DNA of 58,704 nucleotides from Acidobacteriota bacterium (lineage in GTDB: Bacteria > Acidobacteriota > Terriglobia > Bryobacterales > Bryobacteraceae), in the NCBI GenBank assembly GCA_037439565.1, contig JBBIVT010000003.1, positions 41,583-100,286 of the forward strand. The letters run 5' to 3'. Positions 797 through 17,532 of this stretch are shown in pieces (position 1 is the stretch's first letter; every line of letters begins with the position of its first letter). Below the pieces are notes generated by a model. It saw only the letters and a program-made list of their open reading frames with translations. It did not search any database and had not been told where the DNA came from. The translations under genes were made by a program, and so were the position numbers.

Positions 797-851
797 TGTT
801 CTCTTTCAGTCTATCGGACCTGGGCCTGAACAAAATACTGTCTATAGGGGA

Positions 852-881
852 TTGCCCACAACCTGCCTATTTAGGTGTAAT
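852..881 (+). promoter_or_regulatory. Candidate sigma-70-type promoter for pal
   Basis: TTGCCC (852-857), 18-nt spacer, TGTAAT (876-881). AAGAGGA Shine-Dalgarno at 903-909 before the ATG at 913. Pattern match only. Confidence 0.3.
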
Positions 882-912
882 GTAAAAAGACTCAGTCTAC
901 ACAAGAGGATTT

Positions 913-1497
913 ATGAAACACGCAACCTTAGCCCTGTTGGGCCTGGCAGCTTTGATGTCGACGGCGGGATGCCACAAGAAAACCGTGGCCGCCGCGAAAC
1001 CGGCCGATACCACGCCAGTGGCCCAGGCTCCCGCGCCTGCCGCGCAGCCGATGGAACGGCGCCAAAGTGCGCCCGCGACGGCGGCCAGCGCGCCCACCAG
1101 GACTCCCGGTGTCATGACGCCAGCCGAACGCGCGCGTCTCAATGAGATTCTGGCCCGCCTGAACGACGCTCTGTTCGATTACGATAAAGCCACCATTCGC
1201 GACGACGCCTCCACCGTGCTGAAGGCCGATGTCGGCGTGATCCGCGACATCCTCTCCAATTATCCCAATCAGAAGCTGCTGATTGAAGGAAATGCGGACG
1301 AGCGTGGCTCGGAAGAGTATAATTTAGCCCTCGGCGATCGCCGCGCCCGCGCCGCGCAGGAGTTTCTGGTTCAGATGGGCATTCCGGCCGCGCAGTTGAG
1401 CTTGGTCAGCTACGGCAAGGAGCGCCCGATCTGCACGGATAAGACCGAGGACTGCTGGCAGCGCAACCGCCGCGTCCACGTCACCGCCGCGCCGTAA
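913..1497 (+). CDS. pal: Peptidoglycan-associated lipoprotein (OmpA-family C-terminal domain)
   Basis: Lipobox LMSTAGC in the signal peptide, a Pro/Ala-rich linker, and the OmpA_C motif LLIEGNADERGSEEYNLALGDRRARAAQEFL. Confidence 0.9.
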   Translation: MKHATLALLGLAALMSTAGCHKKTVAAAKPADTTPVAQAPAPAAQPMERRQSAPATAASAPTRTPGVMTPAERARLNEILARLNDALFDYDKATIRDDASTVLKADVGVIRDILSNYPNQKLLIEGNADERGSEEYNLALGDRRARAAQEFLVQMGIPAAQLSLVSYGKERPICTDKTEDCWQRNRRVHVTAAP

Positions 1498-1524
1498 GGA
1501 CATTGGTTCATTCTCCTTTTCAGT

Positions 1525-1586
1525 AACCGCCCCTGCAACCGCAACCTATTCCTCCGAGGTGCGAGATGCAGGGGCGGTTTTTTTTT
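1525..1586 (+). terminator. Rho-independent terminator downstream of pal
   Basis: Perfect 13-bp inverted repeat aaccgcccctgca (1525-1537) / tgcaggggcggtt (1567-1579), followed by a 9-T run to 1586. The 29-nt loop is unusually long. Confidence 0.6.
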
Positions 1587-1674
1587 CGGCCACATCCCAA
1601 CCTCTTGGCCCAATTGATACACTGATCCTCATGCCGGGCGGTCGGTAAAACGCAGCGGCGGAGGAAGCGAAACT

Positions 1675-2475
1675 ATGAAATGGTATTACGCCGATGCCGG
1701 ACGGCAGGTTGGGCCGGTGGAGGATGCGCAGCTCGATGACTTGCTCCGCTCCGGAGCCATTCGTGATGACACCCTGGTCTGGCGCGAGGGGATGGCCAAC
1801 TGGCAGCCTCATTCCGCAGTGCGCGGACCCGCCAAGCCACAACCGATTCCCGCCGCGGCGGTCCCTGTTGCGGCGGAAACCCGCTTCTGCTCTGAATGCG
1901 GACGGCCGTTTCCAGCCAGCGAACTGGTAAGTATCGGCACGGCTACGGTCTGCGCCCAGTGCAAGCCTCTGTTCATGCAGCGTATGAGGGAGGGCGGGCA
2001 GGCGATCGGCGCGCGGCGCTACGCCGGGTTTTGGATCCGCTTCGTGGCCATCATCATCGATGGCATTATTCTCGGCGTGGTTGGATTCATCATTGGTATG
2101 CCCATCCGCCTGCTTCTTGGCGTTTCCGCTATTTCCGTGTCCCAGAACCGCGATCCGTCCGCTGCGTTGGCGATGCTGCCGGCGATGATGGGAATGCTCG
2201 GCCTCAGCCTGTTCATCAATCTGGTGGTGGGCGTTCTGTACGACGTGTACTTCGTTTCCCAAAAGGGCGGCACGGTAGGGAAGCTGGCCTTGGGCCTGCA
2301 AATCATCCGGGTTGACGGCTCGCGTTTGTCGGTTGGACAGGCCTTCGGCCGCTATTTTGCCAAGTTCCTGAGCGCGATCATTTTCTACATCGGGTTCATC
2401 ATGGCGGGTTTCGACTCGGAAAAGCGCGCCCTGCATGACCGCATCTGCGACTCACGCGTGATCTATTCGAAGTAA
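1675..2475 (+). CDS. GYF_2 domain / zinc-ribbon / RDD-family membrane protein
   Basis: N-terminal WYYADAGRQVGPVEDAQLDDLLRSGAIRDDTLVWREGMANWQP (GYF_2/DUF4339-like). CxxC-x17-CxxC ribbon (CSECG...CAQCK). RDD-type membrane domain (RRYAGFWIRFVAIIIDGIILG ... KRALHDRICDSRVI). Confidence 0.8.
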   Translation: MKWYYADAGRQVGPVEDAQLDDLLRSGAIRDDTLVWREGMANWQPHSAVRGPAKPQPIPAAAVPVAAETRFCSECGRPFPASELVSIGTATVCAQCKPLFMQRMREGGQAIGARRYAGFWIRFVAIIIDGIILGVVGFIIGMPIRLLLGVSAISVSQNRDPSAALAMLPAMMGMLGLSLFINLVVGVLYDVYFVSQKGGTVGKLALGLQIIRVDGSRLSVGQAFGRYFAKFLSAIIFYIGFIMAGFDSEKRALHDRICDSRVIYSK

Positions 2476-3050
2476 TGCCGGCGAATGCCATCGCATGCGC
2501 CGTCTGTTCCTCTCCGGTTGCGGCGGAAAACTGGAACCGGGAGGAGGCCTCGCGTTGCCCCGGCTGCGGCCGGGACGTCAGAGCCCTCGTGTTTCCCGCC
2601 CTCCGTCACGACCGCTCCGGCGAGTCCCCGGCTGCGCTCGAGGGCGAATCCGAAGCCAGTTGCTACTACCATCCGCAGAACCGCGCCGCGCGCGTTTGCG
2701 AAGATTGCGGACGCTTCCTGTGCCAGCTTTGCGATCTGGATGTCGACGGTCGCCACCTCTGCCCGCGCTGCTTCGACAAAACGGAGGTTCTGGAAACCAG
2801 CCGGCCGATGTACGACACCATGGCTCTGGCTCTCGCCACTTTCCCCGCGCTGTTGTTCTGGCCCGCGTTCCTCGGCGCGCCGTGGGCTCTGACGATGGTC
2901 ATTCGCCGCTGGAACGCCCCTTCTTCCCTGGTCCCACGCACGAAAATCCGCTTCATCCTGGCGGCCCTGTTCGCAGTGGCCGAGATCGGCTTCGGGATTT
3001 TCGTCATCTATATGTTCACGAGCGTGAGTCTGAAAGGGCCGCGGCGCTGA
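2475..3050 (+). CDS. Zinc-ribbon plus B-box-like zinc-finger membrane protein
   Basis: The ATG overlaps the upstream TAA (TAATG). CAVC-x16-CPGC ribbon, then C-x2-H-x8-C-x2-C-x4-C-x2-C-x9-C-x2-C (CYYHPQNRAARVCEDCGRFLCQLCDLDVDGRHLCPRC). Three predicted TM helices lie in the C-terminal half. Confidence 0.65.
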   Translation: MPANAIACAVCSSPVAAENWNREEASRCPGCGRDVRALVFPALRHDRSGESPAALEGESEASCYYHPQNRAARVCEDCGRFLCQLCDLDVDGRHLCPRCFDKTEVLETSRPMYDTMALALATFPALLFWPAFLGAPWALTMVIRRWNAPSSLVPRTKIRFILAALFAVAEIGFGIFVIYMFTSVSLKGPRR

Positions 3051-3063
3051 CTGGCCTCTGAAC

Positions 3064-4020
3064 ATGGCCCGTTCCATTTATACGAAGCTCACCGGCCGAT
3101 ACCGAAGCCTGGCTGGCTTCACCCAGCTCTGGCTTGCGCCGGACCACCTGATGCTGCTCCAATCCTCGCGCTTTTCCGAGCAGTATAAGCGCTTTGCATT
3201 TTCCGATATTCAGTCCATCGTGGTGACGGAACTCCCGCCGCGCACTGTTGCCCGGTCGGCGATAATCCTCGCCGCGTTGGCGTGGATGGGTCTCTGGTTC
3301 GCGCTGGAGGCGAGGTGGGCAAAATGGGCGATCGAGCTCAGTGGGGTGCTGGCGCTGCTGATTCCCATTGCCGATATCGCGCGAGGACCGCGCTGCCGCT
3401 GCGTGCTCCACACGCGGGTCAGCCGGGAGCCGCTCGAACCCGTGTCGCGGATCCGCATCGCGCGCAAGTGTTTGGCCGAAATCCGTCCCAGAATCGAAGC
3501 GGTGCAGGGCGTGTTGCCGCCCACGCTCGAGCCGTTCCCGCAGGCGCCTTCCGTGACAGAAACGCCGCCTCCGGAAACACCCTCTCCGCCCGGTTACCTG
3601 CCGGAAATCGTGTTTGGGCTTTTTCTGGCCAACGCCTTAATGATCTGGGCCCTGATGCGATTCCCTCAGATGACCGATCTTTCTGGAGTCCTTGTCAATA
3701 CGATATTCGCGGAAATGCTGTTGATCGTGGTGGCGTTCCTTCGCCGCAAGGGCCGCGACCCGCGTGTGATCGTCTACGCGGTGATGGCGCTGGGTATCCT
3801 GGGTATTGCCTACGGCTTTTATGAACTGGCGCGGGAACTGAGTGGCTGGTATATGACGGTACTCGAAAAGGCGCGGAATAACGATCGTTCGATCACGCCC
3901 TTGACGATCTTTGCGAGCGGGGATCGGGCACAGTGGATGACGGTAGCGTGGCGTGCCGCCGCCGGCGTGATCGGGCTCGGGGCGGCATTCTACGAGCGGC
4001 GGAGCAAATGGCCCCGGTGA
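3064..4020 (+). CDS. Hypothetical polytopic membrane protein
   Basis: 318-aa ORF, 13 nt after the previous stop. Several hydrophobic helices and a Pro-rich linker (TETPPPETPSPPGY). I recognised no family. Confidence 0.6.
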   Translation: MARSIYTKLTGRYRSLAGFTQLWLAPDHLMLLQSSRFSEQYKRFAFSDIQSIVVTELPPRTVARSAIILAALAWMGLWFALEARWAKWAIELSGVLALLIPIADIARGPRCRCVLHTRVSREPLEPVSRIRIARKCLAEIRPRIEAVQGVLPPTLEPFPQAPSVTETPPPETPSPPGYLPEIVFGLFLANALMIWALMRFPQMTDLSGVLVNTIFAEMLLIVVAFLRRKGRDPRVIVYAVMALGILGIAYGFYELARELSGWYMTVLEKARNNDRSITPLTIFASGDRAQWMTVAWRAAAGVIGLGAAFYERRSKWPR

Positions 4021-4310
4021 GTCTCCTCGACCGGCGCTGCTCGAATCACGCCGCGCGTGAAGCGGCGGTGCAATGCCCGTCCTGCAAACGGTTTTTCTGC
4101 CGGGAGTGCGTCACTGAGTACGATGGCCGCATGATGTGCGTCTCCTGCGTTACTCTGTTGGCGCGCAGTGAGGCCGGCGCGGAGCGTTCGAAGAAGATTC
4201 GATGGACATTGGGCGCCTTCGCGGGAATCCTTCTGGCTTGGATGGCGTTTTATTATCTTGGATCGTTGTTGGCGCGCATCCCCTCGCAGTTTCATGCAGA
4301 AGGCCTATGA
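4008..4310 (+). CDS. B-box-like zinc-finger membrane protein (paralog of the 2475 gene's finger)
   Basis: The internal ATG at 4008 overlaps the upstream gene end by 13 nt. CSNHAAREAAVQCPSCKRFFCRECVTEYDGRMMCVSC has exactly the same Cys/His spacing as the 2475 product. One C-terminal TM (WTLGAFAGILLAWMAFYYLG). Confidence 0.6.
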   Translation: MAPVSLLDRRCSNHAAREAAVQCPSCKRFFCRECVTEYDGRMMCVSCVTLLARSEAGAERSKKIRWTLGAFAGILLAWMAFYYLGSLLARIPSQFHAEGL

Positions 4311-5821
4311 ACCGTTCCAGCGAACGCCCCGCCATCGATCTTTTGGAGGAAGCCGTCTCGCTCCTTCGCCATGCCCCCGTCGACGCCGTGGCGGCATACC
4401 TCATCGGCGCGGCGCCGTTCACGCTCGCGTTTCTGTTTTTTCTGGCCGATATGAACCGCAGCCCGTTCGCGTCCGATCAACTGGCCTGGGCATCGCTCGC
4501 CGTCGCGCTTCTGTACGTCTGGAAGAATATCTGGCAGGCGCTGTTCATGGCGAAGCTGTACCGCGTGGTTTCTCCCTCGGAAGCGCCCACGCCGGGCCAT
4601 TGGCAGGCGATCCTGATGCAGGCGGCGCTGCAGCCGGTGGGCCTGGTATTTCCTCTACCACTGTCGTGGACGGTGGCCTTCTTCCGAAACGCCGCGTTGT
4701 ACGCGGGGCTGGGGCGGCACGATGCCGTTTCCGCCGCGCGCCGCCAGTCCGCCTACGCGCCAGGGCAAAATTGGAGCGTGCTCGCCATTGTGCTGGTTGG
4801 CTCGTTGCTGCTGTTCGCAAACGTTCTGATGGTAATCGTTTTTCTGCCGCAACTGGGCCGTTCGCTGCTGGGGATTGAGGGCGATCTGGCGCGTCTCGGC
4901 ATGGGGATTCTCAACCTCACTACATTGAGCGTCGCCGGGGCGATCACCTGGCTGGCCGTGGATCCGTTGCTCGACGCCGTTTATGTGCTGCGGTGCTTCT
5001 ACGGCGAATCGGTGGCCACCGGAGCCGATCTTCGGGCGGCATTGAAGCGCGCCACGGCGATGATCGCGCTGATCGTGGTCGCGGCAACCGGTGCGCACGC
5101 GCAGAGCATCGATGAGAAGAAGCTTGATCAGGCCATCGACCAGGTGATCCATCAGCGCGAGTTCACCTGGCGGGCGCCGCGCACGTCGCCGGAGCCGCAG
5201 GGCAAATGGGTGAGTTGGTACCGCGCGGCGGCGAAATCCCTCCAGGAGGCTTGGGACTGGCTCGGCGGAAAAATCCGGGAATGGCTCCAGCCTCAGAAGG
5301 AAGGGCGTGGAGCCGATAAGGCGGCGACGGTCAATCGTAAAGCAATTCTGGCGCTTATATCGGCCATCATCGCGCTGACTGCCGGAGGAATTGTTCTGTT
5401 TTTTGTGCGGCGAAAACCCGGCCCCGCGGTGAAAGCGCAAGGAGTGGCCGCTTCAGTACCCGCGCTGAATCTGGCCGACGAATCGCTCACCGCCGACCGT
5501 CTGCCGGAAGAGGAATGGCTTGCCCTGGCCGACGAGTTCATCGCGAAAGGCGATTTCCGGCTGGCCCTGCGCGCCCTCTATCTGGCCGCGCTGAACTATC
5601 TCAGCGCCCGCGATCTAGTGTCGTTGCGACGCTGGAAGACCGGCCTCGATTACCGCCGCGAACTGGCCCGCCGCGCGCGCGCGACCCCCGATTTACCGCA
5701 GGCCTTCTCGCAAGGCGTGGCGATTTTCGAGGAAGGCTGGTATGGCCGTCACCCCGTGAATCGCGCCATGGCGGAGGCGGTGGCCTCCGGCTTCAATCAA
5801 ATGAGGGCGCATGGGAAATAG
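4307..5821 (+). CDS. Polytopic membrane protein with a C-terminal DUF4129-like domain
   Basis: ATGA overlap with the upstream stop. Multiple TM helices, then a late TM followed by LRALYLAALNYL...WKTGLDYRRELARRA...FEEGWYGRHPV, which resembles the DUF4129 tail of TgpA-like proteins. Confidence 0.6.
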   Translation: MNRSSERPAIDLLEEAVSLLRHAPVDAVAAYLIGAAPFTLAFLFFLADMNRSPFASDQLAWASLAVALLYVWKNIWQALFMAKLYRVVSPSEAPTPGHWQAILMQAALQPVGLVFPLPLSWTVAFFRNAALYAGLGRHDAVSAARRQSAYAPGQNWSVLAIVLVGSLLLFANVLMVIVFLPQLGRSLLGIEGDLARLGMGILNLTTLSVAGAITWLAVDPLLDAVYVLRCFYGESVATGADLRAALKRATAMIALIVVAATGAHAQSIDEKKLDQAIDQVIHQREFTWRAPRTSPEPQGKWVSWYRAAAKSLQEAWDWLGGKIREWLQPQKEGRGADKAATVNRKAILALISAIIALTAGGIVLFFVRRKPGPAVKAQGVAASVPALNLADESLTADRLPEEEWLALADEFIAKGDFRLALRALYLAALNYLSARDLVSLRRWKTGLDYRRELARRARATPDLPQAFSQGVAIFEEGWYGRHPVNRAMAEAVASGFNQMRAHGK

Positions 5822-6806
5822 ACTTGCCATCGCCGCGCTTTTGATTGCCCTTGCCTGGGGGCTGGAGCAGGTGGTGGTATCGCCCCTGGATATCGGCGCG
5901 GTCTATCCCGAATACTCCACGCTGCGGGCGGACCCGATGGGTGCGATGGCGCTGTACCAGAGCCTCGGCAGGATCACGAACGTCGAACGGCTGTATAAAA
6001 GTCGGGAGGAAACGGTTCCCGGGAAGGGAACCACGATGTTCGTGCTCGGCGTCGATCCGGTGGCATGGTCGCACGCGGACCGCGAGACGCTGGAAGAATA
6101 TGAAAGGCTCACGCGGAACGGCGCCCGATTGGTGTTCGCGTTTCTGCCAGCCCAGAGAAGTTTTGTGGACACCGCCGACACTCCCGTGGAGATGCGCTGG
6201 CACATCCATTTCGGCTATCGGAAAATGCACGCCGACGTGGGCGAGATTCCCCATGAGTCCGGTCTCCGGCTGACGGGCGGCGCGGACTGGAAGACGCTCG
6301 ATGCTGCGTCCAACGCGCTCGAAAGACCTCTGGGCGCGGGATCGGTGGCTCTGATTGCCGATAGCTATCCGCTCAGCAACGAAGGCCTGCGGGAGGCGCG
6401 CGACCCGGCGCTGATCGTCAAGCTCGCCGGCAGCGCCAACCGCATCGTCTTCGACGAGAATCATTTTGGCGTCGCCGAAACCGGCAGCATCGCCAAGCTG
6501 ATACGCAAATATCATCTGGAAGGGGCGCTGGGCGTGTTGGCCCTGGCCGCCATTCTGTTCCTGTGGCGCAGCGCGTCCAGCCTGCTGCCTTCGCGCGCGC
6601 CAGGCGTCGATCAGGCCGTCGCGGGACGGGATTCGCTGGAAGGTATGACCGCGCTGCTGCGCCGCGGCATCGCCGAGAAGGACCTGGTGCGCGTGTGCTA
6701 CGCCGAATGGCGAAAAACCTCGCCGCGCGTTCCCGTGCCCGATGAGTCCGCATTCAATCAAAAAAATGCAGTCGCGGCGTATAAAGCGCTGATGGAGAAA
6801 CGATGA
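5811..6806 (+). CDS. DUF4350-like protein (N- and C-terminal membrane anchors)
   Basis: 11-nt overlap with the upstream gene. N-terminal TM, a soluble domain ending in IVFDENHFG, and a second TM (ALGVLALAAILFLW). The architecture is typical of DUF4350 proteins found next to MoxR/DUF58. Confidence 0.55.
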   Translation: MGNRLAIAALLIALAWGLEQVVVSPLDIGAVYPEYSTLRADPMGAMALYQSLGRITNVERLYKSREETVPGKGTTMFVLGVDPVAWSHADRETLEEYERLTRNGARLVFAFLPAQRSFVDTADTPVEMRWHIHFGYRKMHADVGEIPHESGLRLTGGADWKTLDAASNALERPLGAGSVALIADSYPLSNEGLREARDPALIVKLAGSANRIVFDENHFGVAETGSIAKLIRKYHLEGALGVLALAAILFLWRSASSLLPSRAPGVDQAVAGRDSLEGMTALLRRGIAEKDLVRVCYAEWRKTSPRVPVPDESAFNQKNAVAAYKALMEKR

Positions 6807-7768
6807 CCGAACGACTTGAACTGCTGCACCAGACGCTCGAACGCGCGCGGAAGCAAATTTCCAAGGTGATTCTGGGCCAGGACGCCGCCGTCGACGCCGC
6901 GCTCACCGTCATTCTGACTCGCCAGCACGCGCTGATTGAGGGAGTGCCCGGTGTGGCGAAAACGCTGCTCGCGCGCACTCTGGCTCACGTGCTGGGATGC
7001 GAGTTCGAGCGCATCCAGTTCACTCCGGATCTGATGCCCGCCGACATCACCGGCACCAGCGTGTTCCATTTCGAGCGCAACGAGTTTCACCTGGTGCGCG
7101 GGCCGGTGTTCACGTCATTCCTCCTGGCCGACGAAATCAATCGCGCTCCCGCGAAGACGCAATCGGCGCTGCTGCAGGCAATGCAGGAGCGCGCCGTGAC
7201 CATCGATCGCGAGACCTATCGCTTGTCCCCGGATTTCACCGTGTTCGCCACGCAAAATCCCATCGAATACGAGGGCACCTATCCGCTGCCGGAGGCGCAA
7301 AAGGACCGGTTCCTGCTAAAAATGCCGATGGCCGCCCCGGAGCGCGCCGACGAAATGGAACTGGCGAAAAGGATGCTCGGCGCCGATGCGCCGGAAACGT
7401 GCCTGGATCGCGGCGACGTCCGGGCAGTGCTCCAGGCAGGCGAATTGGATGCGGCGCGAGCGGCGCTCGTGGATGTTGCGATGCGCGAAGAGCTGGTGGC
7501 CTACATCGTCGATCTGGTGAGGAAAACGCGTACGGATGAAAGCGTTCTGGTGGGCGCGGGGCCTCGCGCCACGCAAGGATTAGTCGCGGCGAGCCGCGCG
7601 CATGCGGCCATTGCCGGACGCGATTTCGTGACTCCGGATGACGTGAAGGCGATGGCCATTCCGGTGCTCGATCACCGGCTGATTCTGCGGCCCGAGTTCG
7701 AGATCGAAGGCATGACGCCGGCCGAGGCAGTGGGGAAAATTTTGGAAAGTGTAGCGGTACCCGTGTAA
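6803..7768 (+). CDS. moxR: MoxR-family AAA+ ATPase
   Basis: ATGA overlap. Walker A GVPGVAKT, Walker B/sensor LLADEINRAPAKTQSALLQAMQE, FTVFATQNPIEYEGTYPLPEAQKDRF; about 320 aa. Confidence 0.93.
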   Translation: MTERLELLHQTLERARKQISKVILGQDAAVDAALTVILTRQHALIEGVPGVAKTLLARTLAHVLGCEFERIQFTPDLMPADITGTSVFHFERNEFHLVRGPVFTSFLLADEINRAPAKTQSALLQAMQERAVTIDRETYRLSPDFTVFATQNPIEYEGTYPLPEAQKDRFLLKMPMAAPERADEMELAKRMLGADAPETCLDRGDVRAVLQAGELDAARAALVDVAMREELVAYIVDLVRKTRTDESVLVGAGPRATQGLVAASRAHAAIAGRDFVTPDDVKAMAIPVLDHRLILRPEFEIEGMTPAEAVGKILESVAVPV

Positions 7769-7859
7769 TGAAGATTCGAAAAATGGGGACAGATTACTCT
7801 GCCGCTGCCTGCATGGCAGATGTGGACCAGGCGGTCGGTCCAGATTTTTCACGCTACTT

Positions 7860-9161
7860 ATGATTCCCTCATCCAGACTCATTTGGCTCGTGATGATCGC
7901 GGGATTTCCTGCGGCGATGCTGGCCGCATTGTCCCCTGCCATGCGGTTGACGGCGGTAATATTGCTGATCTCGGGGGCAATGGCCGCGATCGTGGACGCC
8001 TTACTGCGATCGCGCTCTCTGGACGGTATTCGCGTGGAACTGCCCTTGCTGGCGCGCCTCTTCAAGGATCGCGAGGGCGAAATCCGTGTGCGTGTCCACC
8101 ACGCGCATTCCGGCCGAATCCGCTTGGCAATTGCTGTTCCCGAGGGCATAGATGCGGAGTTCGAGGAGCAGGACGTTGATTTGCCCGAAGGCGCTGGGGC
8201 CTCTGAGTTCGTCTGGAAATGGACCGCGCGGCGGCGGGGATTGTATCGCGTGGACGCGGTGTATCTGGAAGCCGCGTCTCCTTGGGGGCTGTGGCGGGCG
8301 CGCCGTAAGGACGCCGCGGGCATGGAGATTCGCGCCTATCCCAATCTGCGGCGCAAGGACGATCTGAAGGCCCTGCGGCAGGGCGTGAGCGGCGCGCATT
8401 CCCAGAGGCAGGTCGGCCGCGGGCGCGAGTTCGAAAAGCTGCGCGAATACCTGCCGGGCGACGCGCTCGACGAGATTCACTGGAAAGCGACGGCGCGCCA
8501 CGGCAAACCGATCACGAAGGTATTTCAGGTCGAGCGCACCCAGGAGGTCTACGTCGTCATCGACGCGTCGCGCCTTTCGGCAAGGCTCGTGGGCGAGGAA
8601 ACCGCGTTGGAGCGGGCGATTTCAGCGGGTTTGATCATCGGATCGGCGGCGGAAAAGAGAGGGGATCTGTTTGGACTTGCCGCGTTCTCCGGCCAAGTGA
8701 ACGCGTTCGTGCGGGCGCGGAACGGCAAAGCGCATTACGCGGCGTGCCGGGACGCAATTTACCAATTGCACCCGCAGCCGGTTTCGCCCGATTTCGATGA
8801 GATTGCCACGTTCCTGCGGCTGCGCCTGCGGAGACGCGCGATGGTGCTGTTTCTCACGTCGCTCGACGATCCGGTGCTTGCGGAAGACTTCGCCCGGGCT
8901 ACGAAACTGCTGGCAAGAAGGCACTTGGTGCTGGCCGGGATGCTGCGTCCCGCGTCGGCGCGGCGGCTATTTGAGAACGATGTGGAAACGGTGGAAGATA
9001 TTTACAGGGACCTCGCGGGCCACATCGCCTGGAGGCGATTGAAGGAACTGGAAGCGTCGCTCGCGCGGAGCGGGGTGAGGCTGTCAGTGATCGACCCGGA
9101 GAATTATTCCAGCGCGCTGATCGGGCTTTACGACACGGTAAAGCAGAGGCAGTTGCTGTGA
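7860..9161 (+). CDS. DUF58 domain protein (vWA-like MoxR partner)
   Basis: N-terminal TM pair. Signature GREFEKLREYLPGDALDEIHWKATARHGKPITKVFQVERTQEVYVVIDASR. Confidence 0.88.
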   Translation: MIPSSRLIWLVMIAGFPAAMLAALSPAMRLTAVILLISGAMAAIVDALLRSRSLDGIRVELPLLARLFKDREGEIRVRVHHAHSGRIRLAIAVPEGIDAEFEEQDVDLPEGAGASEFVWKWTARRRGLYRVDAVYLEAASPWGLWRARRKDAAGMEIRAYPNLRRKDDLKALRQGVSGAHSQRQVGRGREFEKLREYLPGDALDEIHWKATARHGKPITKVFQVERTQEVYVVIDASRLSARLVGEETALERAISAGLIIGSAAEKRGDLFGLAAFSGQVNAFVRARNGKAHYAACRDAIYQLHPQPVSPDFDEIATFLRLRLRRRAMVLFLTSLDDPVLAEDFARATKLLARRHLVLAGMLRPASARRLFENDVETVEDIYRDLAGHIAWRRLKELEASLARSGVRLSVIDPENYSSALIGLYDTVKQRQLL

Positions 9162-10135
9162 TTCTCGATCTCACACGCTTTGTCGAAGCCGGGCGTCCTC
9201 ATTGGACGGCGCTCGAAAAATCCCTTGCTTGGCTGGAGGCGAATCCCCATGCCCGGCTGACGCTCGCCGAAGTAGAGAATCTGCATGTCCTCTATCAACG
9301 CGCCTCTGCCGATCTGGCGCGCGTACCGGAGGGCGAACTGAAACGCTATCTCGAATGGCTGGTCAGCCGCGCCTATGCTGAGATTCACGAAGCCCGGGAG
9401 CGCACGCACTTCCGTCCCTGGAAATGGCTCACCGGGGAGTATCCGCGCACGTTCCGCAAGCATCTGCGGGCGTTCCAATTAGCCGCGGCGCTGACCATCG
9501 GAGGCGTGGCATTTGGGTCGCTGGCGCTGCGCATCGATCCGGAAGCGAAAAGCGTCATCATGCCGTTTGAGGCGCTGCAAAGTTCTCCGGCCGAGCGCGT
9601 GGCCAAGGAGCGCGCCGACGCAGGCAAACACATGACCGGCGTAAAAGGCCGGTTTTCGGCGCAGTTGATGACGCACAACACGCAAGTCGCGCTGACGACG
9701 CTCGCCATGGGGATGACCTTTGGCTTTGGCACGATCGTCCTGCTGTTCTATAACGGCGTGATCCTGGGCGCGGTGGCGTTCGATTATATCCACGGCGGAG
9801 AAGGCGTGTTCCTGATGGGTTGGCTGCTGCCGCACGGCATCATTGAAATTCCGGCGATTCTGGTGGGCGGGCAGGCGGGGCTGGTGATCGCCTACGCGCT
9901 GATCGGTTGGGGCAGCCGCTTTTCGCGAGCCGAACGTCTGCGGCGCGTCTCGCGCGACGTGGTCACTCTGGCGTCGGGCGCGGCGCTGATGCTGGTGTGG
10001 GCGGGGATGATCGAGTCGTTCCTGTCGCAATATCATGAGCCCGTCATCTCCTATGGGACGAAGATCGCCTTCGGGCTGGTCGAGGCGGCGCTGCTCACGT
10101 CTTATCTGGCATTCGCCGGCAGGAAAGCAGGATGA
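9158..10135 (+). CDS. SpoIIM-like (stage II sporulation protein M family) membrane protein
   Basis: GTGA overlap. N-terminal soluble helical domain, then NTQVALTTLAMGMTFGFGTIVLLFYNGVILG ... LPHGIIEIPAILVGGQAGL, characteristic of the SpoIIM/DUF95 family. Confidence 0.8.
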   Translation: MILDLTRFVEAGRPHWTALEKSLAWLEANPHARLTLAEVENLHVLYQRASADLARVPEGELKRYLEWLVSRAYAEIHEARERTHFRPWKWLTGEYPRTFRKHLRAFQLAAALTIGGVAFGSLALRIDPEAKSVIMPFEALQSSPAERVAKERADAGKHMTGVKGRFSAQLMTHNTQVALTTLAMGMTFGFGTIVLLFYNGVILGAVAFDYIHGGEGVFLMGWLLPHGIIEIPAILVGGQAGLVIAYALIGWGSRFSRAERLRRVSRDVVTLASGAALMLVWAGMIESFLSQYHEPVISYGTKIAFGLVEAALLTSYLAFAGRKAG

Positions 10136-10884
10136 CGGGCGACAGTCTCACCATCCGGACGCCGGAGGGCATCGAATTTGCCCTGCCGCTGGCTGGTCCT
10201 GTGAGTAGGATGCTCGCCCTGATCGTCGACGTGGCGGTGGTCGCCGCCATCGGCAAAATGGCGGAACAGTTGCTCGCGCCGCTGGGGTTTTTAGGGAAAG
10301 ATATTTCGGACGCGATTCGCATCCTCTCCTATTTCGTTATCTCCTTAACTTATATGGCCTTGGCTGAGTGGCTTTGGCGCGGCCAGACCGTGGGCAAGAG
10401 GCTGCTGCGGCTGCGGGTGGTGGACGTTGGCGGGCTGAAGCTGGAGCCGAGCCAGGTGATCGTGCGCAATCTGATGCGCTTCATCGACGCCCTGCCGGCT
10501 CTGTATCTTGCAGGTGGAATCTCATGCCTGGCCAGCGAGCGGCGCCAGCGGCTTGGCGATCTGGCGGCTGGGACGGTGGTGATCCGCGCCCCGAAGCTGG
10601 AGCGTCCCGATTTGGATCAATTGCTCGGCGGGAAGTTCAATTCGCTGGCGGAGATCCGTCATCTGGCTGCGAGGCTGCGGCAAAGGGTCCGGCCGGAGGT
10701 GGCGGCGATCGCCTTGGAGGCTCTATTGCGCCGCGATGAAATCGAACCGCGCGCCCGCCTAAAGCTGTTTCGCGAATTGGCGGACTACTTTCGCCGCCTG
10801 GTGGAATATCCGCCTGAGATATCCGAGCAACTCTCTGATGAGCAGTATGTGCGTAACGTCGCCGAAATTCTTCATCGGAAGTAG
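10132..10884 (+). CDS. RDD-family membrane protein
   Basis: ATGA overlap. IEFALPLAGPVSRMLALIVDVAVV ... GQTVGKRLLRLRVVDVGG ... RRQRLGDLAAGTVVIR, plus a roughly 90-aa cytoplasmic tail. Confidence 0.8.
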   Translation: MTGDSLTIRTPEGIEFALPLAGPVSRMLALIVDVAVVAAIGKMAEQLLAPLGFLGKDISDAIRILSYFVISLTYMALAEWLWRGQTVGKRLLRLRVVDVGGLKLEPSQVIVRNLMRFIDALPALYLAGGISCLASERRQRLGDLAAGTVVIRAPKLERPDLDQLLGGKFNSLAEIRHLAARLRQRVRPEVAAIALEALLRRDEIEPRARLKLFRELADYFRRLVEYPPEISEQLSDEQYVRNVAEILHRK

Positions 10885-10935
10885 CCTACTCCCAGCCATT
10901 GCATGCTAGGGGGGAGTGTGCTGAAGTAATAGTTG

Positions 10936-13245
10936 ATGCAATGCGGTAAGTTCCTGAAATTTCTGCCTCTGTTGCTGTTCGTGTTGGCTTCCTGCAACCG
11001 TGATCCGAAGGTGCAGGCGCAGCGGCAACTGGAGCAGGCCAACAAGTTTTTCTCGCGCGGGAAGTACAAGGAAGCGGCGATCATGTATAAACGCGCCCTT
11101 CAGAAAGACATGCGCTTCGGCGAGGCGTACTACCGCCTCGGCTTGACTGAGTTGAAGCTGCAAAGCTATGGCGAGGCGCTTCGCTCGTTGCGACGCTCGG
11201 TGGAGCTTCAGCCCGCCAATACGGACGCCATCACCAAACTGGCGGACCTTTACATGCTGGCCTCCACGCAGCAATCTGCAGGGCAGCAGAAGCAGCTCTT
11301 GGATGAAGTGAAGGATCTTTCCGACAAGTTGCTGAAGCAAAACCCGGATTCGTTCGACGGACACCGGTTGAAAGGGCAGTTGGCGCTGCTTGACAAGGAT
11401 CCCAAGGCGGCAATTGAGGAATTCGAAAAGGCCAACCGCATTAAGCCGAATCAACCCGAAGTCGTGCTGGTGTATTTCCAGGCGCTGATCCTGGATGACC
11501 GGTTCCCGGAAGCGGAGAAGCTGGCGAATGCTCTGATCGACAACGAGAAGGCTTACGCGCCGATGTACGATTTGTTGTACGCGCAGTATCTGCGGCGGAA
11601 GGATTTGGCCTCGGCCGAGGACCTGCTGAAGCGAAAAGTAGCCAACAACCCGTCGCAGGTGCGCGCGATGATTCAGTTGGCACAGCACTACTTCTTCTCG
11701 GGCAAAAAAGCGGAGATGGATGCCGTGATGCAGCAGCTGAACGATGAGAAGAAATTCCCCGATGGGCATCTCGCTGCGGGCGATTTTTATCTTTTCCGCC
11801 TGAAGGATGCGGAGAGTGCCCGGGTGCAATATGAAGCGGCCATCAAGGCGTTTCCAAAGGACAAGGCAGTGTATCAAAAGCGCCTGGTGGAGTTGTACGC
11901 GACCACGGGAAGGGGTCCTCAGGCCAACGAAGTGCTCGCCGCCATTCTGAAGGATAATCCAAAAGACAGCGAAGCCATCGGAATGCGGGCCGCGCTGATG
12001 CTGGCGACTGGAAATCGCGATCAGATCGCCGCGGCGGCCAATGACCTGCAAGCCCTGGTCACCAAATCGCCGGAAAATCACATGTACCGGTTCAACCTGG
12101 CCCGGGCGATGGTGGCGAAAGGCGAAATCGAGCCAGCACGGCTGCAACTGGAAGAGGCCATCAAGCTGCGGAGTGATTTCGTTCTGGCGCGGATCCTGCT
12201 GGCGAAAATCTACCTAGCCGAAGGTCAGCCGGCGAAAGCGCTGAACGAAGCCGAAGGCGCCATCGCGGTCGATAAGGGCAACTTACAGGCGCATCTGACC
12301 CGGTCGAGCGCGCTTTTGGGAATGGGGGACAAGGATAAGGCCCGCCAGGAGCTGGATCTAATCGGTAAGGCATATCCGCAAAACCCCGAGGCCAAATACC
12401 AGGTGGGCTTCATGGCTCTTCAGGATAAGGATTACAAGCGGGCGGAACAGATTTTCACCGACGTGTATAAGTCGAATCCCAACGACACCCGCGGGTTGGC
12501 CGGAGTCACGGAAACACTGGCTGCGGAGGGCCGCATGGCAGACGCCATCAAGGAGACCCAAAAAGCTGTCGAGAAAGAACCGCAGCGGCGGGATCTCAAA
12601 CTGGTGTTGGCGAAGTTCTACGTGCGCTCGGAGCGCTACGACGAGGCGATTGCCATCTATCAGTTCCTGATTCAACAGGAGCCCCGGTCGGCCGATCTGT
12701 TGTTTCAGTTAGCCGAAACGCAACGGCGTAAAGGCGATCTGAATGGGGCGGTCGATACGTTCCGGCGGTGCAGCCAGGCGGCTCCCGCCGATACCGCGTG
12801 TCTCACCCAGATGGGGCTGATTCTGGACGCTACCGGCAAGCGGGACCAGGCCAAGCCGATCTATGAACAGATCCTGAAGATCAAACCGGATAACGGCGTG
12901 GCGCTGAATAATCTGGCCTTCATTAAGGCCGAGGAAGGCGTGGACTTGGATCAGGCGCTGTCGATGTCCCAACGGGCGCGCCAGCAGATGCCCAACGCTC
13001 CTGAGGTTTCCGATACACTCGGCTGGATTTACATCAAGAAAAACTTGAGCGAGGACGCCGTGCGCGTCTTCAAGGATCTTACGGCACAGGTTCCGTCGAA
13101 TCCAACCTTCCATTATCACTACGGGATGGCGCTGCTGCAGAAGGGCGATAAGTCCTCGGCGAAAAAGGAGTTGGAGCTGGCTCTGGCGGACAAACCTTCC
13201 AAGGGCGATGAAGTCAAGGTCCGGGAACTTCTGCAGAAGCTTTAA
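10936..13245 (+). CDS. Large TPR-repeat lipoprotein
   Basis: ATG at 10936; the track start at 10933 is TTG. Lipobox LFVLASC. TPR-like helical repeats run throughout (AIMYKRALQKDMRFGEAYYRLG..., ALNNLAFIKAEEG...). Confidence 0.85.
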   Translation: MQCGKFLKFLPLLLFVLASCNRDPKVQAQRQLEQANKFFSRGKYKEAAIMYKRALQKDMRFGEAYYRLGLTELKLQSYGEALRSLRRSVELQPANTDAITKLADLYMLASTQQSAGQQKQLLDEVKDLSDKLLKQNPDSFDGHRLKGQLALLDKDPKAAIEEFEKANRIKPNQPEVVLVYFQALILDDRFPEAEKLANALIDNEKAYAPMYDLLYAQYLRRKDLASAEDLLKRKVANNPSQVRAMIQLAQHYFFSGKKAEMDAVMQQLNDEKKFPDGHLAAGDFYLFRLKDAESARVQYEAAIKAFPKDKAVYQKRLVELYATTGRGPQANEVLAAILKDNPKDSEAIGMRAALMLATGNRDQIAAAANDLQALVTKSPENHMYRFNLARAMVAKGEIEPARLQLEEAIKLRSDFVLARILLAKIYLAEGQPAKALNEAEGAIAVDKGNLQAHLTRSSALLGMGDKDKARQELDLIGKAYPQNPEAKYQVGFMALQDKDYKRAEQIFTDVYKSNPNDTRGLAGVTETLAAEGRMADAIKETQKAVEKEPQRRDLKLVLAKFYVRSERYDEAIAIYQFLIQQEPRSADLLFQLAETQRRKGDLNGAVDTFRRCSQAAPADTACLTQMGLILDATGKRDQAKPIYEQILKIKPDNGVALNNLAFIKAEEGVDLDQALSMSQRARQQMPNAPEVSDTLGWIYIKKNLSEDAVRVFKDLTAQVPSNPTFHYHYGMALLQKGDKSSAKKELELALADKPSKGDEVKVRELLQKL

Positions 13246-13299
13246 TCGGAGATTCGACTGACAAAATCTGCGTGGTTCCCTTATGTAGCGCCCTTCGCG

Positions 13300-13923
13300 G
13301 TGTTCCTGGCCCTTCTAGCCCTGCACTCGGTTCTTCCGTTGCCGGATCTAGCCGATCAGATCCTGCGGGTCGCCGTGATGCTGCCGGTCCTATGGTTCAT
13401 TGCGCGGCCGGTCGTCGACTTCAGGGTGCGCCATCTGGCGGCGACGCTGGCCATCGGCGTGGCCGTGTTTGTCCTTTGGATCGGGCCCGATTTGCTGATT
13501 CACGGCTACCGGCAATGCTGGCTGTTTCAAAATGCCGTGACGGGGAAAGTGGCGTCGTCGTTGGCGGCCGGCTCCATAATGAGCTGGCCAGTGCTGGCGC
13601 TGCGAACCTTCCGCGCGACCCTTATCGTCCCCATCGTCGAGGAATTATTCTGGCGCGCCTGGCTGATGCGATGGCTGATTGACAACGATTTCGAGAAGGT
13701 GCCGCTCGGAAAGTATGCGCCGCAGGCGTTCTGGCTCGTGGCGCTGCTGTTCGCTTCCGAGCACGGACCTTATTGGGACGTGGGCCTGTTGGCCGGAATC
13801 GTCTATAACTGGTGGATGGTGCGCACGAAGAGTCTGGGCGACCTGATTCTGGCGCACGCCGTGACAAATTTCGTCCTGAGCGTGTACGTGATCGCGGCAG
13901 GCAAGTGGGAATATTGGTTATGA
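13300..13923 (+). CDS. CPBP-family intramembrane glutamic endopeptidase (CAAX-protease-like)
   Basis: Motifs VEELFWRAWL (EExxxR), FASEHG (FxxxH) and HAVTNF. GTG start at 13300. The frame stays open up to the upstream stop, so the true start may lie further 5'. Confidence 0.75.
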   Translation: MFLALLALHSVLPLPDLADQILRVAVMLPVLWFIARPVVDFRVRHLAATLAIGVAVFVLWIGPDLLIHGYRQCWLFQNAVTGKVASSLAAGSIMSWPVLALRTFRATLIVPIVEELFWRAWLMRWLIDNDFEKVPLGKYAPQAFWLVALLFASEHGPYWDVGLLAGIVYNWWMVRTKSLGDLILAHAVTNFVLSVYVIAAGKWEYWL

Positions 13924-14741
13924 AGATGGAAATGATTCGTGAAGGGGCGTCGGCGGCCAACGCCAAGGTGGCGCTGTTCGACTTCGATGGCACGCTGTCC
14001 CTGGTTCGCTCCGGGTGGATGGACGTCATGGTCCCGATGATGGTCGAAATTTTGGCCAGCCTCAAGACAGGGGAATCGGACGCGGAATTGAAGACCGTGG
14101 TTGAGGATTTCGTGTGGCGGCTGACGGGCAAGGAGACGATCTATCAGATGATAGCCTTGGCCGAAAATATCGAGAAGCGCGGCGGCAAGCCGCTCGATCC
14201 GCTCCAGTATAAAAAAATGTATCTGGACCTTCTTTGGGAGCGCATCCGGGGCCGCGTGGAGGAGTTGAAAAGCGGCAAGGCGTCGCCGGAAAAGTACATG
14301 GTTCCCGGCGCACGCGCGCTGCTCGAAAGCCTCAAGGAGCGCGGCCTGAAAATGTACCTGGCCAGCGGCACCGACGAAGTCTATATGAAGGAAGAAGCGC
14401 GCCTGATCGATGTCGCCAGGTACTTCGACGGCGGAGTTTTCGGCGCGCTTGACGACTACAAGAGTTTTTCCAAGAAGATCCTGGTGCAGAGAATCCTGGC
14501 CAGCACCGACGTCCGCGGCGAAGAGATCATCGGCTTCGGCGACGGTTACGTCGAGATCGAGGAAGTGAAACTGGTCGGCGGAGTAGCCGTGGGTGTGGCG
14601 TCGACTGAACCGGAGTGCCAGGTGGTGGACGAATGGAAGCGCCAGCGCCTGATCGGTGTCGGCGCGGATTACATCGTGCCCAACTATCTTTGCCGCGAGC
14701 AGTTAGTGGAGGCCCTGTTTGCCGAACCGGTCCAAGTATGA
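13920..14741 (+). CDS. HAD-superfamily hydrolase/phosphatase
   Basis: ATGA overlap with the CPBP gene. Motif I FDFDGTLS, a cap region, LASGTDE, and GFGDGYVE near the C-terminus. Confidence 0.75.
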   Translation: MKMEMIREGASAANAKVALFDFDGTLSLVRSGWMDVMVPMMVEILASLKTGESDAELKTVVEDFVWRLTGKETIYQMIALAENIEKRGGKPLDPLQYKKMYLDLLWERIRGRVEELKSGKASPEKYMVPGARALLESLKERGLKMYLASGTDEVYMKEEARLIDVARYFDGGVFGALDDYKSFSKKILVQRILASTDVRGEEIIGFGDGYVEIEEVKLVGGVAVGVASTEPECQVVDEWKRQRLIGVGADYIVPNYLCREQLVEALFAEPVQV

Positions 14742-14742
14742 A

Positions 14743-16655: not shown

Positions 16656-16692
16656 GCCACCGGGATAGCCTGCTCAGGGCCGCTCCCATCTT

Positions 16693-17532
16693 ATGAATAT
16701 CCTGGCCATCGATATCGGCGGTACCAAGTTTTCCTTAGCCTTGTTTCAAGGCGATCGAATGGTGCAACGGGCATCGCTCTCCACCGATCGCGATGGCGGC
16801 CCCGAATGGATGCTGGCGCGGATCGAAAGCCTGGCTCGAGGTTGGCAATTCGACCGCTGCGGCATCGGCTTCGGCGGGCCCGTGGACTTTCGCAAACAGA
16901 CGGTGGCCTTGTCCACCCATGTCGGAGGATGGAAGAATTTCCCGCTCGTCGAGCGCGTCAAGGCCATGTTCAACGTGCCTGTGGCGATGGATAACGACGC
17001 CAACGTCGGGGCGCTGGGCGAGGCCATCTATGGTGCAGGTCGAGATGCCCGCCCGCTGTTTTATATGACCCTTTCGACAGGCATCGGAGGTGGGATCGTG
17101 CTCGCGGATTCCACCGTCTATCGCGGCGCGGATTCTTACGCGGGCGAGGTGGGTCACATCACTCTCCATCCGGACGGCCCCGAATGCCTCTGTGGATGGC
17201 ATGGATGCTTTGAGCGCATATGCTGCGGCCTTTGGCTGGAGAGGGATTACGGGAAACCGGCGAAGGAATTGATGCAGGACCCGGCCTTTGTCGCCCGCTA
17301 TGTCGTGGATTTGGCGCAGGGCATCAAAGCGGCGGTGATGCTGCTGAACCCGGCCCGCATTGTCATCGGCGGAGGAATATCAAAAGCTGGGGACGCGCTG
17401 TTCGTTCCGCTTCGCGCGGAACTGCGCCGGCAGGTAACGCCGTGGTCGCGGGCGCGGTTGGACGTGGTTCCCGCGGCTCTCGGCGACGATAGCGTCCTCT
17501 ACGGATGCCTGCGGCTTATTCGGTCTTTTTAA
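16693..17532 (+). CDS. ROK-family sugar kinase
   Basis: ILAIDIGGTKFSLAL ATP-binding start. Zn motif CLCGWHGCFERICCG. Confidence 0.85.
   Translation: MNILAIDIGGTKFSLALFQGDRMVQRASLSTDRDGGPEWMLARIESLARGWQFDRCGIGFGGPVDFRKQTVALSTHVGGWKNFPLVERVKAMFNVPVAMDNDANVGALGEAIYGAGRDARPLFYMTLSTGIGGGIVLADSTVYRGADSYAGEVGHITLHPDGPECLCGWHGCFERICCGLWLERDYGKPAKELMQDPAFVARYVVDLAQGIKAAVMLLNPARIVIGGGISKAGDALFVPLRAELRRQVTPWSRARLDVVPAALGDDSVLYGCLRLIRSF

Follow-up and report, generated by a model that had tools for sequence, protein, structure and literature searches.

Ten adjacent genes in a 58,704-nucleotide stretch of DNA from an Acidobacteriota bacterium (GenBank assembly GCA_037439565.1, contig JBBIVT010000003.1, positions 41,583 to 100,286; hereafter the window) form a cassette that, judged by its gene order in other genomes, is a discrete unit whose fixed order is conserved in two phyla or more. 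The genes, here numbered g1 to g10, comprise a four-gene front end (g1-g4) and a six-gene core (g5-g10) in which a predicted MoxR-type AAA+ ATPase gene adjoins a DUF58 gene. The ten genes are proposed to encode one inner-membrane complex powered by the MoxR ATPase, a remodelling machine with cytoplasmic adaptors, and to this reading we assign a probability of about 0.5. The analysis followed up an earlier annotation made from the nucleotide letters, hereafter called the sequence-only reading.

Gene order in related and distant genomes

Close homologues of the cassette are annotated as Bryobacteraceae, Acidobacteriota. A pattern scan with the g5 alignment, using one genome per species, gave 26 loci. 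All ten genes were found in the same order in 16 metagenome-assembled genomes (MAGs) of the Bryobacterales/Terriglobia by tblastn with all window proteins, mostly with overlapping genes, and on the shorter contigs among the 26 loci whatever part of the cassette fits keeps this order. Within the Bryobacterales/Terriglobia the synteny extends to the flanks, taking in small open reading frames (ORFs) and pal upstream, and prsT, a CAAX-like gene and a HAD gene downstream. Because the flanks are also syntenic, conservation within this group alone does not delimit an operon.

The limits of the cassette were seen in more distant genomes. Contigs of eleven distant relatives of g3, taken from a g3 profile search, were read, and four of them (L036, a Thermodesulfobacteriota MAG, and L037, L038 and L039) carry the complete ten-gene cassette in the same order: a GYF_2-RDD protein, a protein of about 190-210 amino acids (aa), a g3-like protein, a protein of about 100 aa, a DUF4129 protein of 530-560 aa, and then DUF4350, MoxR, DUF58, SpoIIM and RDD proteins. 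The proteins of L036-L038 are 31-73% identical to those of the window, and 4-nt overlaps occur at most junctions in L036-L039. All four have unrelated flanks, part of them on the opposite strand, and the conserved set ends exactly at g1 and g10, the genes beyond g10 being different in each. The cassette is therefore delimited by the distant copies, which keep the ten genes but differ in their flanks. The first three to six genes were present in the same order on the short contigs L032-L035, only pieces of the cassette were recovered from the fragmented assembly L040, and a Desulforapulum MAG (L026) carries g1-g7, then 5.4 kb of unrelated genes, and then g8-g9.

Unrelated insertions in the relatives were found at two places only, between MoxR and DUF58 and between DUF58 and SpoIIM. 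The first place is interrupted in L004 and L026, with a gap of about 790 nt, its content unread, in L008; the second is interrupted in L004, with gaps of about 130-1,240 nt, their content likewise unread, in L003 and L005-L008. The insert in L026 (13919-19273) contains YitT, GlnA, radical SAM and PIN genes. The L004 inserts (13375-14049; 15378-16837) hold a 224-aa ORF on the same strand, judged by eye to be methyltransferase-like; their opposite strand encodes a small membrane protein and a secreted repeat protein of 335 aa. The window's only long intergenic gap (91 nt) sits at the first of the two insertion places. These observations suggest three sub-modules that need not be strictly co-translated.

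All six core families (RDD, SpoIIM, DUF4129, DUF4350, MoxR and DUF58) are present and adjacent in g5-g10, and the core neighbourhood also occurs without the front end. On plasmids or chromids of Rhizobium and Paracoccus the order is DUF805, DUF4129-like, DUF4350-like, MoxR, DUF58, SpoIIM and RDD, which after DUF805 is the order of g5-g10; in locus L028 the DUF4129 and DUF4350 matches are sub-threshold, and in L029 the counterparts give no Pfam match and were assigned by position and length. Prevotella has an RDD gene on the opposite strand, followed by SpoIIM, a 336-aa protein, a 204-aa protein, DUF4350, MoxR and DUF58; the 336-aa protein is unrelated to the g3 family. In Nocardia a DUF4129 gene precedes MoxR, DUF58, RDD (opposite strand) and SpoIIM. 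A DUF58 gene is the next after MoxR in the window, in L036-L039 and in all four of these genera. The core was thus seen in the Acidobacteriota, Thermodesulfobacteriota, Pseudomonadota, Bacteroidota and Actinomycetota, five phyla to which the literature adds Mycobacterium, in keeping with the recurrence in several phyla stated in the sequence-only reading. In the mycobacterial counterpart, Rv3689-Rv3695, the Mycobacterium chelonae orthologues were jointly down-regulated in double lysogens (PMC8191103), and Rv3694c and Rv3695 are in the co-immunoprecipitation list of the divisome protein Rv0954 (PMC8093794); that expression table and that list were all that the literature searched for Rv3690-95 turned up.

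The core of Rhizobium, Paracoccus, Prevotella, Nocardia and Mycobacterium resembles the cassette in linking DUF4129, DUF4350, MoxR, DUF58, SpoIIM and RDD. It differs in lacking GYF, B-box and g3-family genes, in having DUF805 in front in Rhizobium and Paracoccus, and in its short DUF4129 protein (about 204-251 aa), whereas g5 carries DUF4129 on a large polytopic N-domain. The front four genes were found only with this long-g5 form of the core.

Some observations on individual loci stand apart from gene order. In L026 an NfeD gene and a flotillin-like FloA gene, a membrane-microdomain pair, precede the cassette (3277-6336), and this pair was seen at none of the other examined loci. Directly upstream of its GYF-RDD cassette, L032 encodes a histidine kinase and a sigma-54 response regulator, and genes for extracytoplasmic function (ECF)-type sigma factors lie nearby in L039. 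Split or shifted tblastn matches or broken gene calls affect cassette genes on the long-read MAG contigs L027, L012, L014, L019 and L040; these are consistent with indel errors rather than pseudogenes.

Organization of the operon

The ten ORFs are packed on the + strand at 1675-10884, as read from the ORF list and directly from the junctions (Table 1). Seven of the nine junctions overlap, and the other two are a 13-nt gap before 3064 (g2/g3) and the 91-nt gap before 7860 (g7/g8); g10 stops at 10884 and the next ATG is at 10936. The starts of g4 at 4008 and of g5 at 4307 were favoured over longer upstream alternatives because the homologues are about 95-100 aa (g4) and about 495-510 aa (g5) long. 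The ten genes are one compact same-strand unit and a genuine, tightly packed operon. As comparison across genomes has shown, the evidence beyond chance is the conservation of gene order and not the spacing of the junctions.

Table 1. Positions of the cassette genes with their predicted products, the overlapping junctions, and flanking features in the window
Feature	Position	Strand	Description
g1	1675..2475	+	266 aa; cytoplasmic GYF_2, CxxC...CxxC zinc ribbon and RDD membrane domain
g2	2475..3050	+	191 aa; zinc ribbon, B-box-like binuclear zinc finger and two membrane helices
g3	3064..4020	+	318 aa; polytopic membrane protein of an unnamed family
g4	4008..4310	+	100 aa; small B-box-like zinc finger and one membrane helix
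g5	4307..5821	+	504 aa; polytopic N-domain of no known family, short conserved putative periplasmic segment, membrane helix, C-terminal DUF4129
g6	5811..6806	+	331 aa; N-terminal signal anchor, ~210-aa putative periplasmic domain, membrane helix, ~80-aa tail
g7	6803..7768	+	321 aa; MoxR-type AAA+ ATPase, the sole soluble product
g8	7860..9161	+	433 aa; DUF58: N-terminal membrane hairpin, then large vWA-like domain
g9	9158..10135	+	325 aa; SpoIIM-family polytopic membrane protein with ~105-aa N-terminal cytoplasmic region
g10	10132..10884	+	250 aa; second RDD-family membrane protein with ~100-aa C-terminal helical tail
Overlapping junctions	TAATG 2475; 13-nt overlap 4008; ATGA 4307; 11-nt overlap 5811; ATGA 6803; GTGA 9158; ATGA 10132	+	
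Intrinsic terminator	1525..1588	+	long G+C hairpin then nine U, after the Pal-like gene
Pal-like OmpA-family lipoprotein gene	913-1497		Pal model 121.5 vs 125.35 bits
TPR lipoprotein gene, PrsT-like	10936-13245		lipobox LASC; PrsT (XrtA/PEP-CTERM) 308.6 bits vs cut-off 312.2 bits
PEP-CTERM-associated CAAX-protease-like gene	13300-13923		TIGR03008 (pepcterm_CAAX) 150.5 bits vs cut-off 81 bits

Much of what the sequence-only reading had said of this layout was reproduced. The ten + strand ORFs and all nine of its junctions were recovered exactly. A hydropathy scan found membrane segments, one or more per protein, in nine of the ten products, the exception being MoxR, in agreement with its count of membrane-anchored products. 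Of its family calls, those for GYF_2, RDD, DUF4129, DUF4350, MoxR, DUF58 and SpoIIM were supported by profile hidden Markov models in Pfam, and the B-box calls for g2 and g4 were left below threshold.

The intrinsic terminator behind the Pal-like gene marks the 5' boundary. Its predicted fold has an energy of -35.9 kcal/mol (z = -5.5), and none of 200 shuffled sequences was as stable. Because this strong terminator lies at about 1525-1588, the transcription unit starts after 1588. It escaped a simple terminator scan, in which the loop was limited to 8 nt; apart from this long-loop terminator, which was found by eye, terminator-like sites in that scan were at chance level. A small G+C hairpin followed by GATTTTT inside the 91-nt MoxR-DUF58 gap (7823-7842) is within the chance expectation of the same scan. 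No sigma-70-like promoter was found in 800-14800 and no sigma-54 -24/-12 match upstream of g1, and Rfam gave zero matches across the whole window.

Predicted products of the front end

The first gene product, g1, matches GYF_2 at residues 3-50 (63.9 bits) and RDD (91.9 bits) in Pfam, and between them has a conserved CxxC...CxxC at 72-96 for which the zinc-ribbon profile matches are weak; three hydrophobic segments were seen by hydropathy. An N-terminal GYF_2 domain, an adjoining zinc ribbon and then a membrane module make up the architecture of the GYF-zinc-ribbon switch proteins. Attia et al. (2024) reported that the GYF domain of GltJ binds a proline-rich sequence and that GYF and zinc-ribbon domains ahead of a membrane module are common in bacteria, where they were proposed to act as a switch (PMC11135422). 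Like GltJ, a component of the Myxococcus gliding machinery, g1 has an N-terminal cytoplasmic GYF domain, an adjoining zinc ribbon and a membrane module after them. Unlike in GltJ, the domain order in g1 is GYF and then zinc ribbon, the membrane module is RDD and not the GltJ periplasmic domain, and the cassette is without Agl/Glt or MglA genes. The match of g1 to the GltJ model NF033761 is N-terminal, in the GYF region (34.3 bits over about 75 residues, cut-off 450), and this region is all that g1 shares with the full-length NCBIfam equivalog.

For g2, the zf-B_box match (23.2 bits) is below the curated cut-off of 24.1, although 12 of 14 g2 family members match this model at E<=0.01 (best 4.3e-5). 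For g4, both zf-B_box (15.9 bits, cut-off 24.1) and ANCHR-like_BBOX (19.8 bits, cut-off 27) are sub-threshold. The putative ligands, C63, H66, C75, C78, C83, C86, C96 and C99 in g2 and C11, H14, C23, C26, C31, C34, C44 and C47 in g4, are invariant, also in distant orthologues, and their spacing, C-x2-H-x8-C-x2-C-x4-C-x2-C-x9-C-x2-C, is invariant and resembles that of B-box type 1. The two proteins align by BLASTP with E = 3e-9 and 31% identity over 71 aa, covering the finger and the helix that follows, and by this similarity g4 is a paralogue of the g2 finger. A profile search of the PDB gave only weak matches, to the p44 RING-like finger and the Midline-1 B-box1 (E 0.02-0.3). Both proteins are accordingly labelled here as B-box-like binuclear zinc fingers, with formal B-box membership unproven. 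In one Bryobacteraceae short-read MAG (L024, 7263-8669), g1 and g2 are joined in frame as a single 468-aa ORF, which may be a Rosetta-stone fusion or else an assembly error.

The third product, g3, has no Pfam or NCBIfam family. Its AlphaFold2 model, with a predicted local distance difference test (pLDDT) score of 80.4, consists of five N-terminal strands, a membrane helical hairpin, two strands and a helix, followed in the C-terminal part by a disordered Pro-rich linker and four long helices. Tentatively, the model describes a PH-like beta-sandwich on the cytoplasmic side, interrupted by a membrane hairpin. The PH-domain matches of the model in Foldseek were weak (probabilities up to 0.97, E >= 0.1), with no match at E<=0.001. 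The conserved part of the family is this split domain, with the motifs LW..DH, E.YKRF..DIQ and GPxCxC. Out of 1.84 billion cluster representatives (clusters built at 50% identity), a g3 profile retrieved 2,609 at E<=1e-3; at E<=1e-10 there were 2,025. By this profile search, g3 represents a large uncatalogued family of about 2,000 clusters. The sequence-only reading had described the front end as gained; the size of the g3 family and the fixed ten-gene cassette in both Acidobacteriota and Thermodesulfobacteriota show that it is not a recent local acquisition.

In the linker of g3 a PP...PGYxPE sequence is invariant within the Terriglobia, and elsewhere Pro-rich runs are only sporadic. Binding of the linker by the GYF domain of g1 was considered and is kept only as a weak idea, the linker motif not being conserved in distant orthologues.

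Predicted products of the core

The DUF4129 match of g5 (29.0 bits, cut-off 24.8) lies at residues 459-527, and 451 homologues of about 495-510 aa were found. As in the TgpA clusters discussed below, a C-terminal DUF4129 is here carried by a polytopic membrane protein near a MoxR-DUF58 pair; no TgpA N-terminal domain was detectable in g5 by Pfam. The idea that g5 is a fusion of the separate Prevotella polytopic and DUF4129 proteins found nothing significant in its favour by hhalign.

For g6, Pfam supports DUF4350 (35.2 bits, cut-off 30.4), and its topology agrees with the published description of arCOG01314. A FDENHFG motif ahead of the second helix is invariant in the aligned Bryobacterales/Terriglobia orthologues. 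A tblastn search of plasmids with DUF4350 gave no match.

By its profile and structural matches, g7 is a predicted MoxR ATPase: AAA_3 scored 207 bits (cut-off 27) and AAA_lid_2 77.9 bits (cut-off 22.7), the nearest solved structure is that of MoxR 2r44 (E = 2.6e-69), and the Walker A (GVPGVAKT) and Walker B (LLADEINR) motifs are intact and conserved in all aligned orthologues. The neighbouring g8 matches DUF58 (82.7 bits, cut-off 23.4) and, very weakly, VWA_2 (13.7 bits). Its signature motif GRGREFEKLREY...IHWKATAR is conserved, and its MIDAS-like site (MIDAS, metal-ion-dependent adhesion site) reads D[AS]SRLS in the cassette, DSGRLM in Rhizobium and DKGRVM in Prevotella.

SpoIIM scored 126.4 bits for g9, to which precomputed annotation adds an N-terminal DUF8413; the GTG at 9158 is its only in-frame start. 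RDD scored 63.8 bits for g10. No relative of the g8 DUF58 or the g9 SpoIIM protein was found in a PDB sequence search. Across the ten products, Pfam searches gave no Transglut_core match at E<=0.1 and no vWA domain above cut-off, nor a separate BatA/B-type vWA protein, and Pfam and NCBIfam gave no ABC, Sec-like, outer-membrane or secretin-like component within the cassette.

Flanking genes

Because there is no terminator between g10 and the PrsT-like gene, read-through into the latter is possible. By family, however, the PrsT-like and CAAX-like genes are members of a different known system, and neither accompanies the cassette in L036-L039, where no TPR gene follows. The sequence-only reading had likened the downstream TPR lipoprotein to the TPR genes of Bat operons. 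Its PrsT score and its lack in L036-L039 rule out a Bat-like operon member. The PrsT-like and CAAX-like pair, directly downstream of the cassette, resembles a fragment of an exosortase/extracellular polysaccharide (EPS) neighbourhood.

Upstream of the Pal-like gene there are two small conserved ORFs (165-425 and 533-829), syntenic in the Terriglobia. Farther downstream in the window a large PDZ/7TM/GAF/PAS histidine kinase (22825-26334) is followed by a sigma-54-type response regulator (26335-27798), and this pair by a UvrC-N/GIY-YIG-like 355-aa ORF (27844-28911) and by a second, divergent DUF58 gene (28908-30023; 28.6 bits) that is without an adjoining MoxR gene.

Discussion

A working model was drawn up for a single complex of the ten products. 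In several systems (NorQ/NorD, CbbQ/CbbO, RavA/ViaA) a vWA partner tethers a MoxR ATPase. By analogy, the DUF58 protein g8, held in the membrane by its N-terminal hairpin with its vWA-like domain in the cytoplasm, would tether a MoxR hexamer at the cytoplasmic face. ATP hydrolysis would then remodel, assemble or reset the membrane partners via their cytoplasmic domains, namely DUF4129 in g5, the DUF4350 protein's tail and the SpoIIM N-terminal and RDD C-terminal extensions. Of the predicted periplasmic parts, only the DUF4350 domain and a short conserved g5 segment are sizeable, and for this reason the output is placed at the periplasmic face of the inner membrane, where it would pass via the g6 DUF4350 domain and the g5 loop; it is probably a change in envelope assembly or homeostasis. 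At the cytoplasmic face, the front four genes would contribute a GYF-zinc-ribbon module, two B-box-like fingers and a split PH-like domain. By the analogy with GltJ, the most likely role of these proteins is that of adaptors or switches, recruiting the motor or gating what it does.

The compact junctions, the ten-gene order across phyla, the adjoining MoxR and DUF58 genes, the intact ATPase motifs and the L024 g1-g2 fusion argue for a single complex, as do the linked core in other phyla, the co-regulated mycobacterial orthologues and the published work on DUF4350 with MoxR and vWA, on SpoIIM and on GltJ. A number of points weigh on the other side. The complex is a proposal from sequence and context, and the topologies are predictions from a simple hydropathy scan. 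The insertions at MoxR|DUF58 and DUF58|SpoIIM, together with the 91-nt gap, mean that the products need not be made stoichiometrically from one mRNA, and the neighbouring RDD and SpoIIM genes of Nocardia and Prevotella are on opposite strands. Since the g8 DUF58 is without a canonical vWA MIDAS (DxSxS...T...D), the vWA-adaptor analogy may fail in detail. The AlphaFold2 model of g5 is poor overall (60.7), confident only for the C-terminal helical DUF4129 domain, and was too poor for a Foldseek search. Finally, conservation of g3's Pro-rich PGYLPE motif is confined to the Terriglobia, which weakens a specific pairing of GYF with g3.

Related systems put these points in context. Makarova, Galperin and Koonin (2015) described DUF4350 (arCOG01314), a COG0714 ATPase and a vWA protein as a predicted secretion or membrane-remodelling complex, and noted that SpoIIM homologues adjoin vWA and COG0714 genes in bacteria (PMC5898192). 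That system is a computational prediction only. In it, as in the cassette, the DUF4350 protein carries a signal sequence as well as a membrane helix at its C-terminus, a MoxR ATPase adjoins a vWA-type partner, and SpoIIM is nearby; equating its vWA partner with DUF58 is our own step. The partners in that system are Ig-like or S-layer proteins, and it was interpreted as mostly extracellular, whereas the cassette domains mostly face the cytoplasm and the partners are instead DUF4129, two RDD, split-PH, two B-box-like and GYF proteins; the ten-gene set is not in that paper. The MoxR-driven inner-membrane assembly or remodelling machine of the sequence-only reading is reasonable, but it remains an inference that essentially restates the published DUF4350, MoxR and vWA prediction.

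Bat (Bacteroides aerotolerance) operons, with MoxR, DUF58, BatA/B (vWA) and BatC/E (TPR) genes, have reported stress-tolerance roles in several species (PMC11834572). A MoxR and DUF58 pair is central to these membrane-associated operons, as it is to the cassette. Unlike them, the cassette has no BatA/B-type vWA membrane proteins, its MoxR gene is seventh and not first, and the adjoining TPR gene is PrsT-like and outside the conserved set. DUF4129 also ends the TgpA transglutaminases, which pair with MoxR-DUF58 as well, clusters of this type reportedly being those of Pseudomonas TgpA and the bifidobacterial PFNA cluster. These share with the cassette a MoxR and DUF58 pair and a polytopic membrane protein ending in DUF4129, but g5 is without Transglut_core, and the periplasmic module of the cassette is a separate DUF4350 protein. 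The earlier statement that the cassette is without both vWA and transglutaminase modules therefore holds for the transglutaminase and for a separate BatA/B-type vWA protein, and overlooked that DUF58 is itself a vWA-like partner.

Four other readings of the same genes were weighed against the single complex. In the first, which we regard as unlikely, the cassette is a transport or secretion device: the two RDD proteins, SpoIIM, g3 and the g5 N-domain form a conduit or carrier, the GldG-like DUF4350 protein handles a periplasmic substrate, and MoxR/DUF58 assembles or energises the whole. The many polytopic components seen by hydropathy suit such a device, and one RDD protein is reportedly a cation/proton antiporter. 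A role in "novel secretion or membrane remodeling" was predicted for DUF4350 with MoxR and vWA, and a similarity of DUF4350 to GldG was noted (PMC5898192). However, the cassette has no ABC, Sec-like, outer-membrane or secretin-like part, the bulk of the soluble mass is cytoplasmic by hydropathy, the archaeal Ig-like/S-layer partners are lacking, and no candidate cargo gene is kept beside the cassette in L036-L039.

A transmembrane signalling switch, in which the GYF-zinc-ribbon, the two zinc-finger and the PH-like proteins sense a cytoplasmic or membrane cue and MoxR resets the sensor, is likewise unlikely. It would fit the proposal that GYF-zinc-ribbon proteins are general switch modules encoded with receptor-like membrane proteins (PMC11135422), the invariant Cys/His ligands of g2 and g4, whose architecture resembles that of zinc-binding anti-sigma factors, and the regulatory genes directly upstream of the cassette in L032 and near it in L039. 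Yet the cassette, as seen in L036-L039, has no sigma factor, kinase or DNA-binding protein among its constant members, the core occurs in Alphaproteobacteria, Bacteroidota and Actinomycetota with no front end, and no output domain was found in the ten products.

That the cassette is only two or three independent neighbouring modules (g1-g7, g8 and g9-g10, or front end versus core) seems rather improbable. The recurrent insertions at MoxR|DUF58 and DUF58|SpoIIM are what such modules would give, and the Bryobacterales synteny, which reaches past the ten genes on both sides, shows that the order there is partly plain collinearity. The full set is nevertheless found in distant lineages with different flanks, ending exactly at g1 and g10, the split cassettes keep their parts within a few kb, and MoxR and DUF58 are a known pair. 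Lastly, a conflict system directed against phages or other invaders, of the kind described for MoxR-vWA ternary systems, has a secondary bpMoxR match of g7 (33.7 bits) in its favour and is very improbable, since there were no PADLOC family matches beyond a spurious 16.9-bit AbiEii hit (phage and viral collections being outside the search), no effector domain was found in any product by Pfam, and the cassette occupies a stable chromosomal site beside housekeeping envelope genes with its order conserved over deep divergence.

The single MoxR-powered complex thus stays the preferred reading. The core was already known, as an unstudied neighbourhood, and a related core had been predicted computationally in 2015; the new points are the front end of four genes, how large the g3 family is, and that the TPR gene lies outside the cassette. 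No paper in the literature searched assigns a function to the cassette or its neighbourhood, in line with what the sequence-only reading had said, and none combines DUF4129 with DUF4350 or with MoxR. MoxR-DUF58, RDD, SpoIIM of non-spore-formers, DUF4129 and DUF4350 are common in bacteria and archaea, and to our knowledge none has a demonstrated molecular role.

The cassette gathers these families in one bounded unit and adds four proteins with recognisable interaction domains. Insofar as it is bounded, fixed in order and equipped with such domains, it supplies the full set of parts for work by pull-downs, co-folding and genetics. A mechanism, once worked out, would probably also apply to the simpler core that mycobacteria (Rv3689-95) and rhizobia have, both of which are genetically tractable. 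We further suggest, as a tentative possibility, that the cassette stands for an as yet unnamed class of inner-membrane machine, distinct and widespread, with the g3 family as its signature. In it a cytoplasmic sensor set, made up of the GYF-zinc-ribbon switch, the two B-box-like proteins and the split PH-like domain, would gate a MoxR/DUF58 motor that drives an inside-out conformational change in a SpoIIM/RDD/DUF4129/DUF4350 complex and so controls an envelope process from the cytoplasm. If this is true, MoxR ATPases would have a mode of action that is new for them, and it would give SpoIIM and RDD proteins their first functional context outside sporulation.

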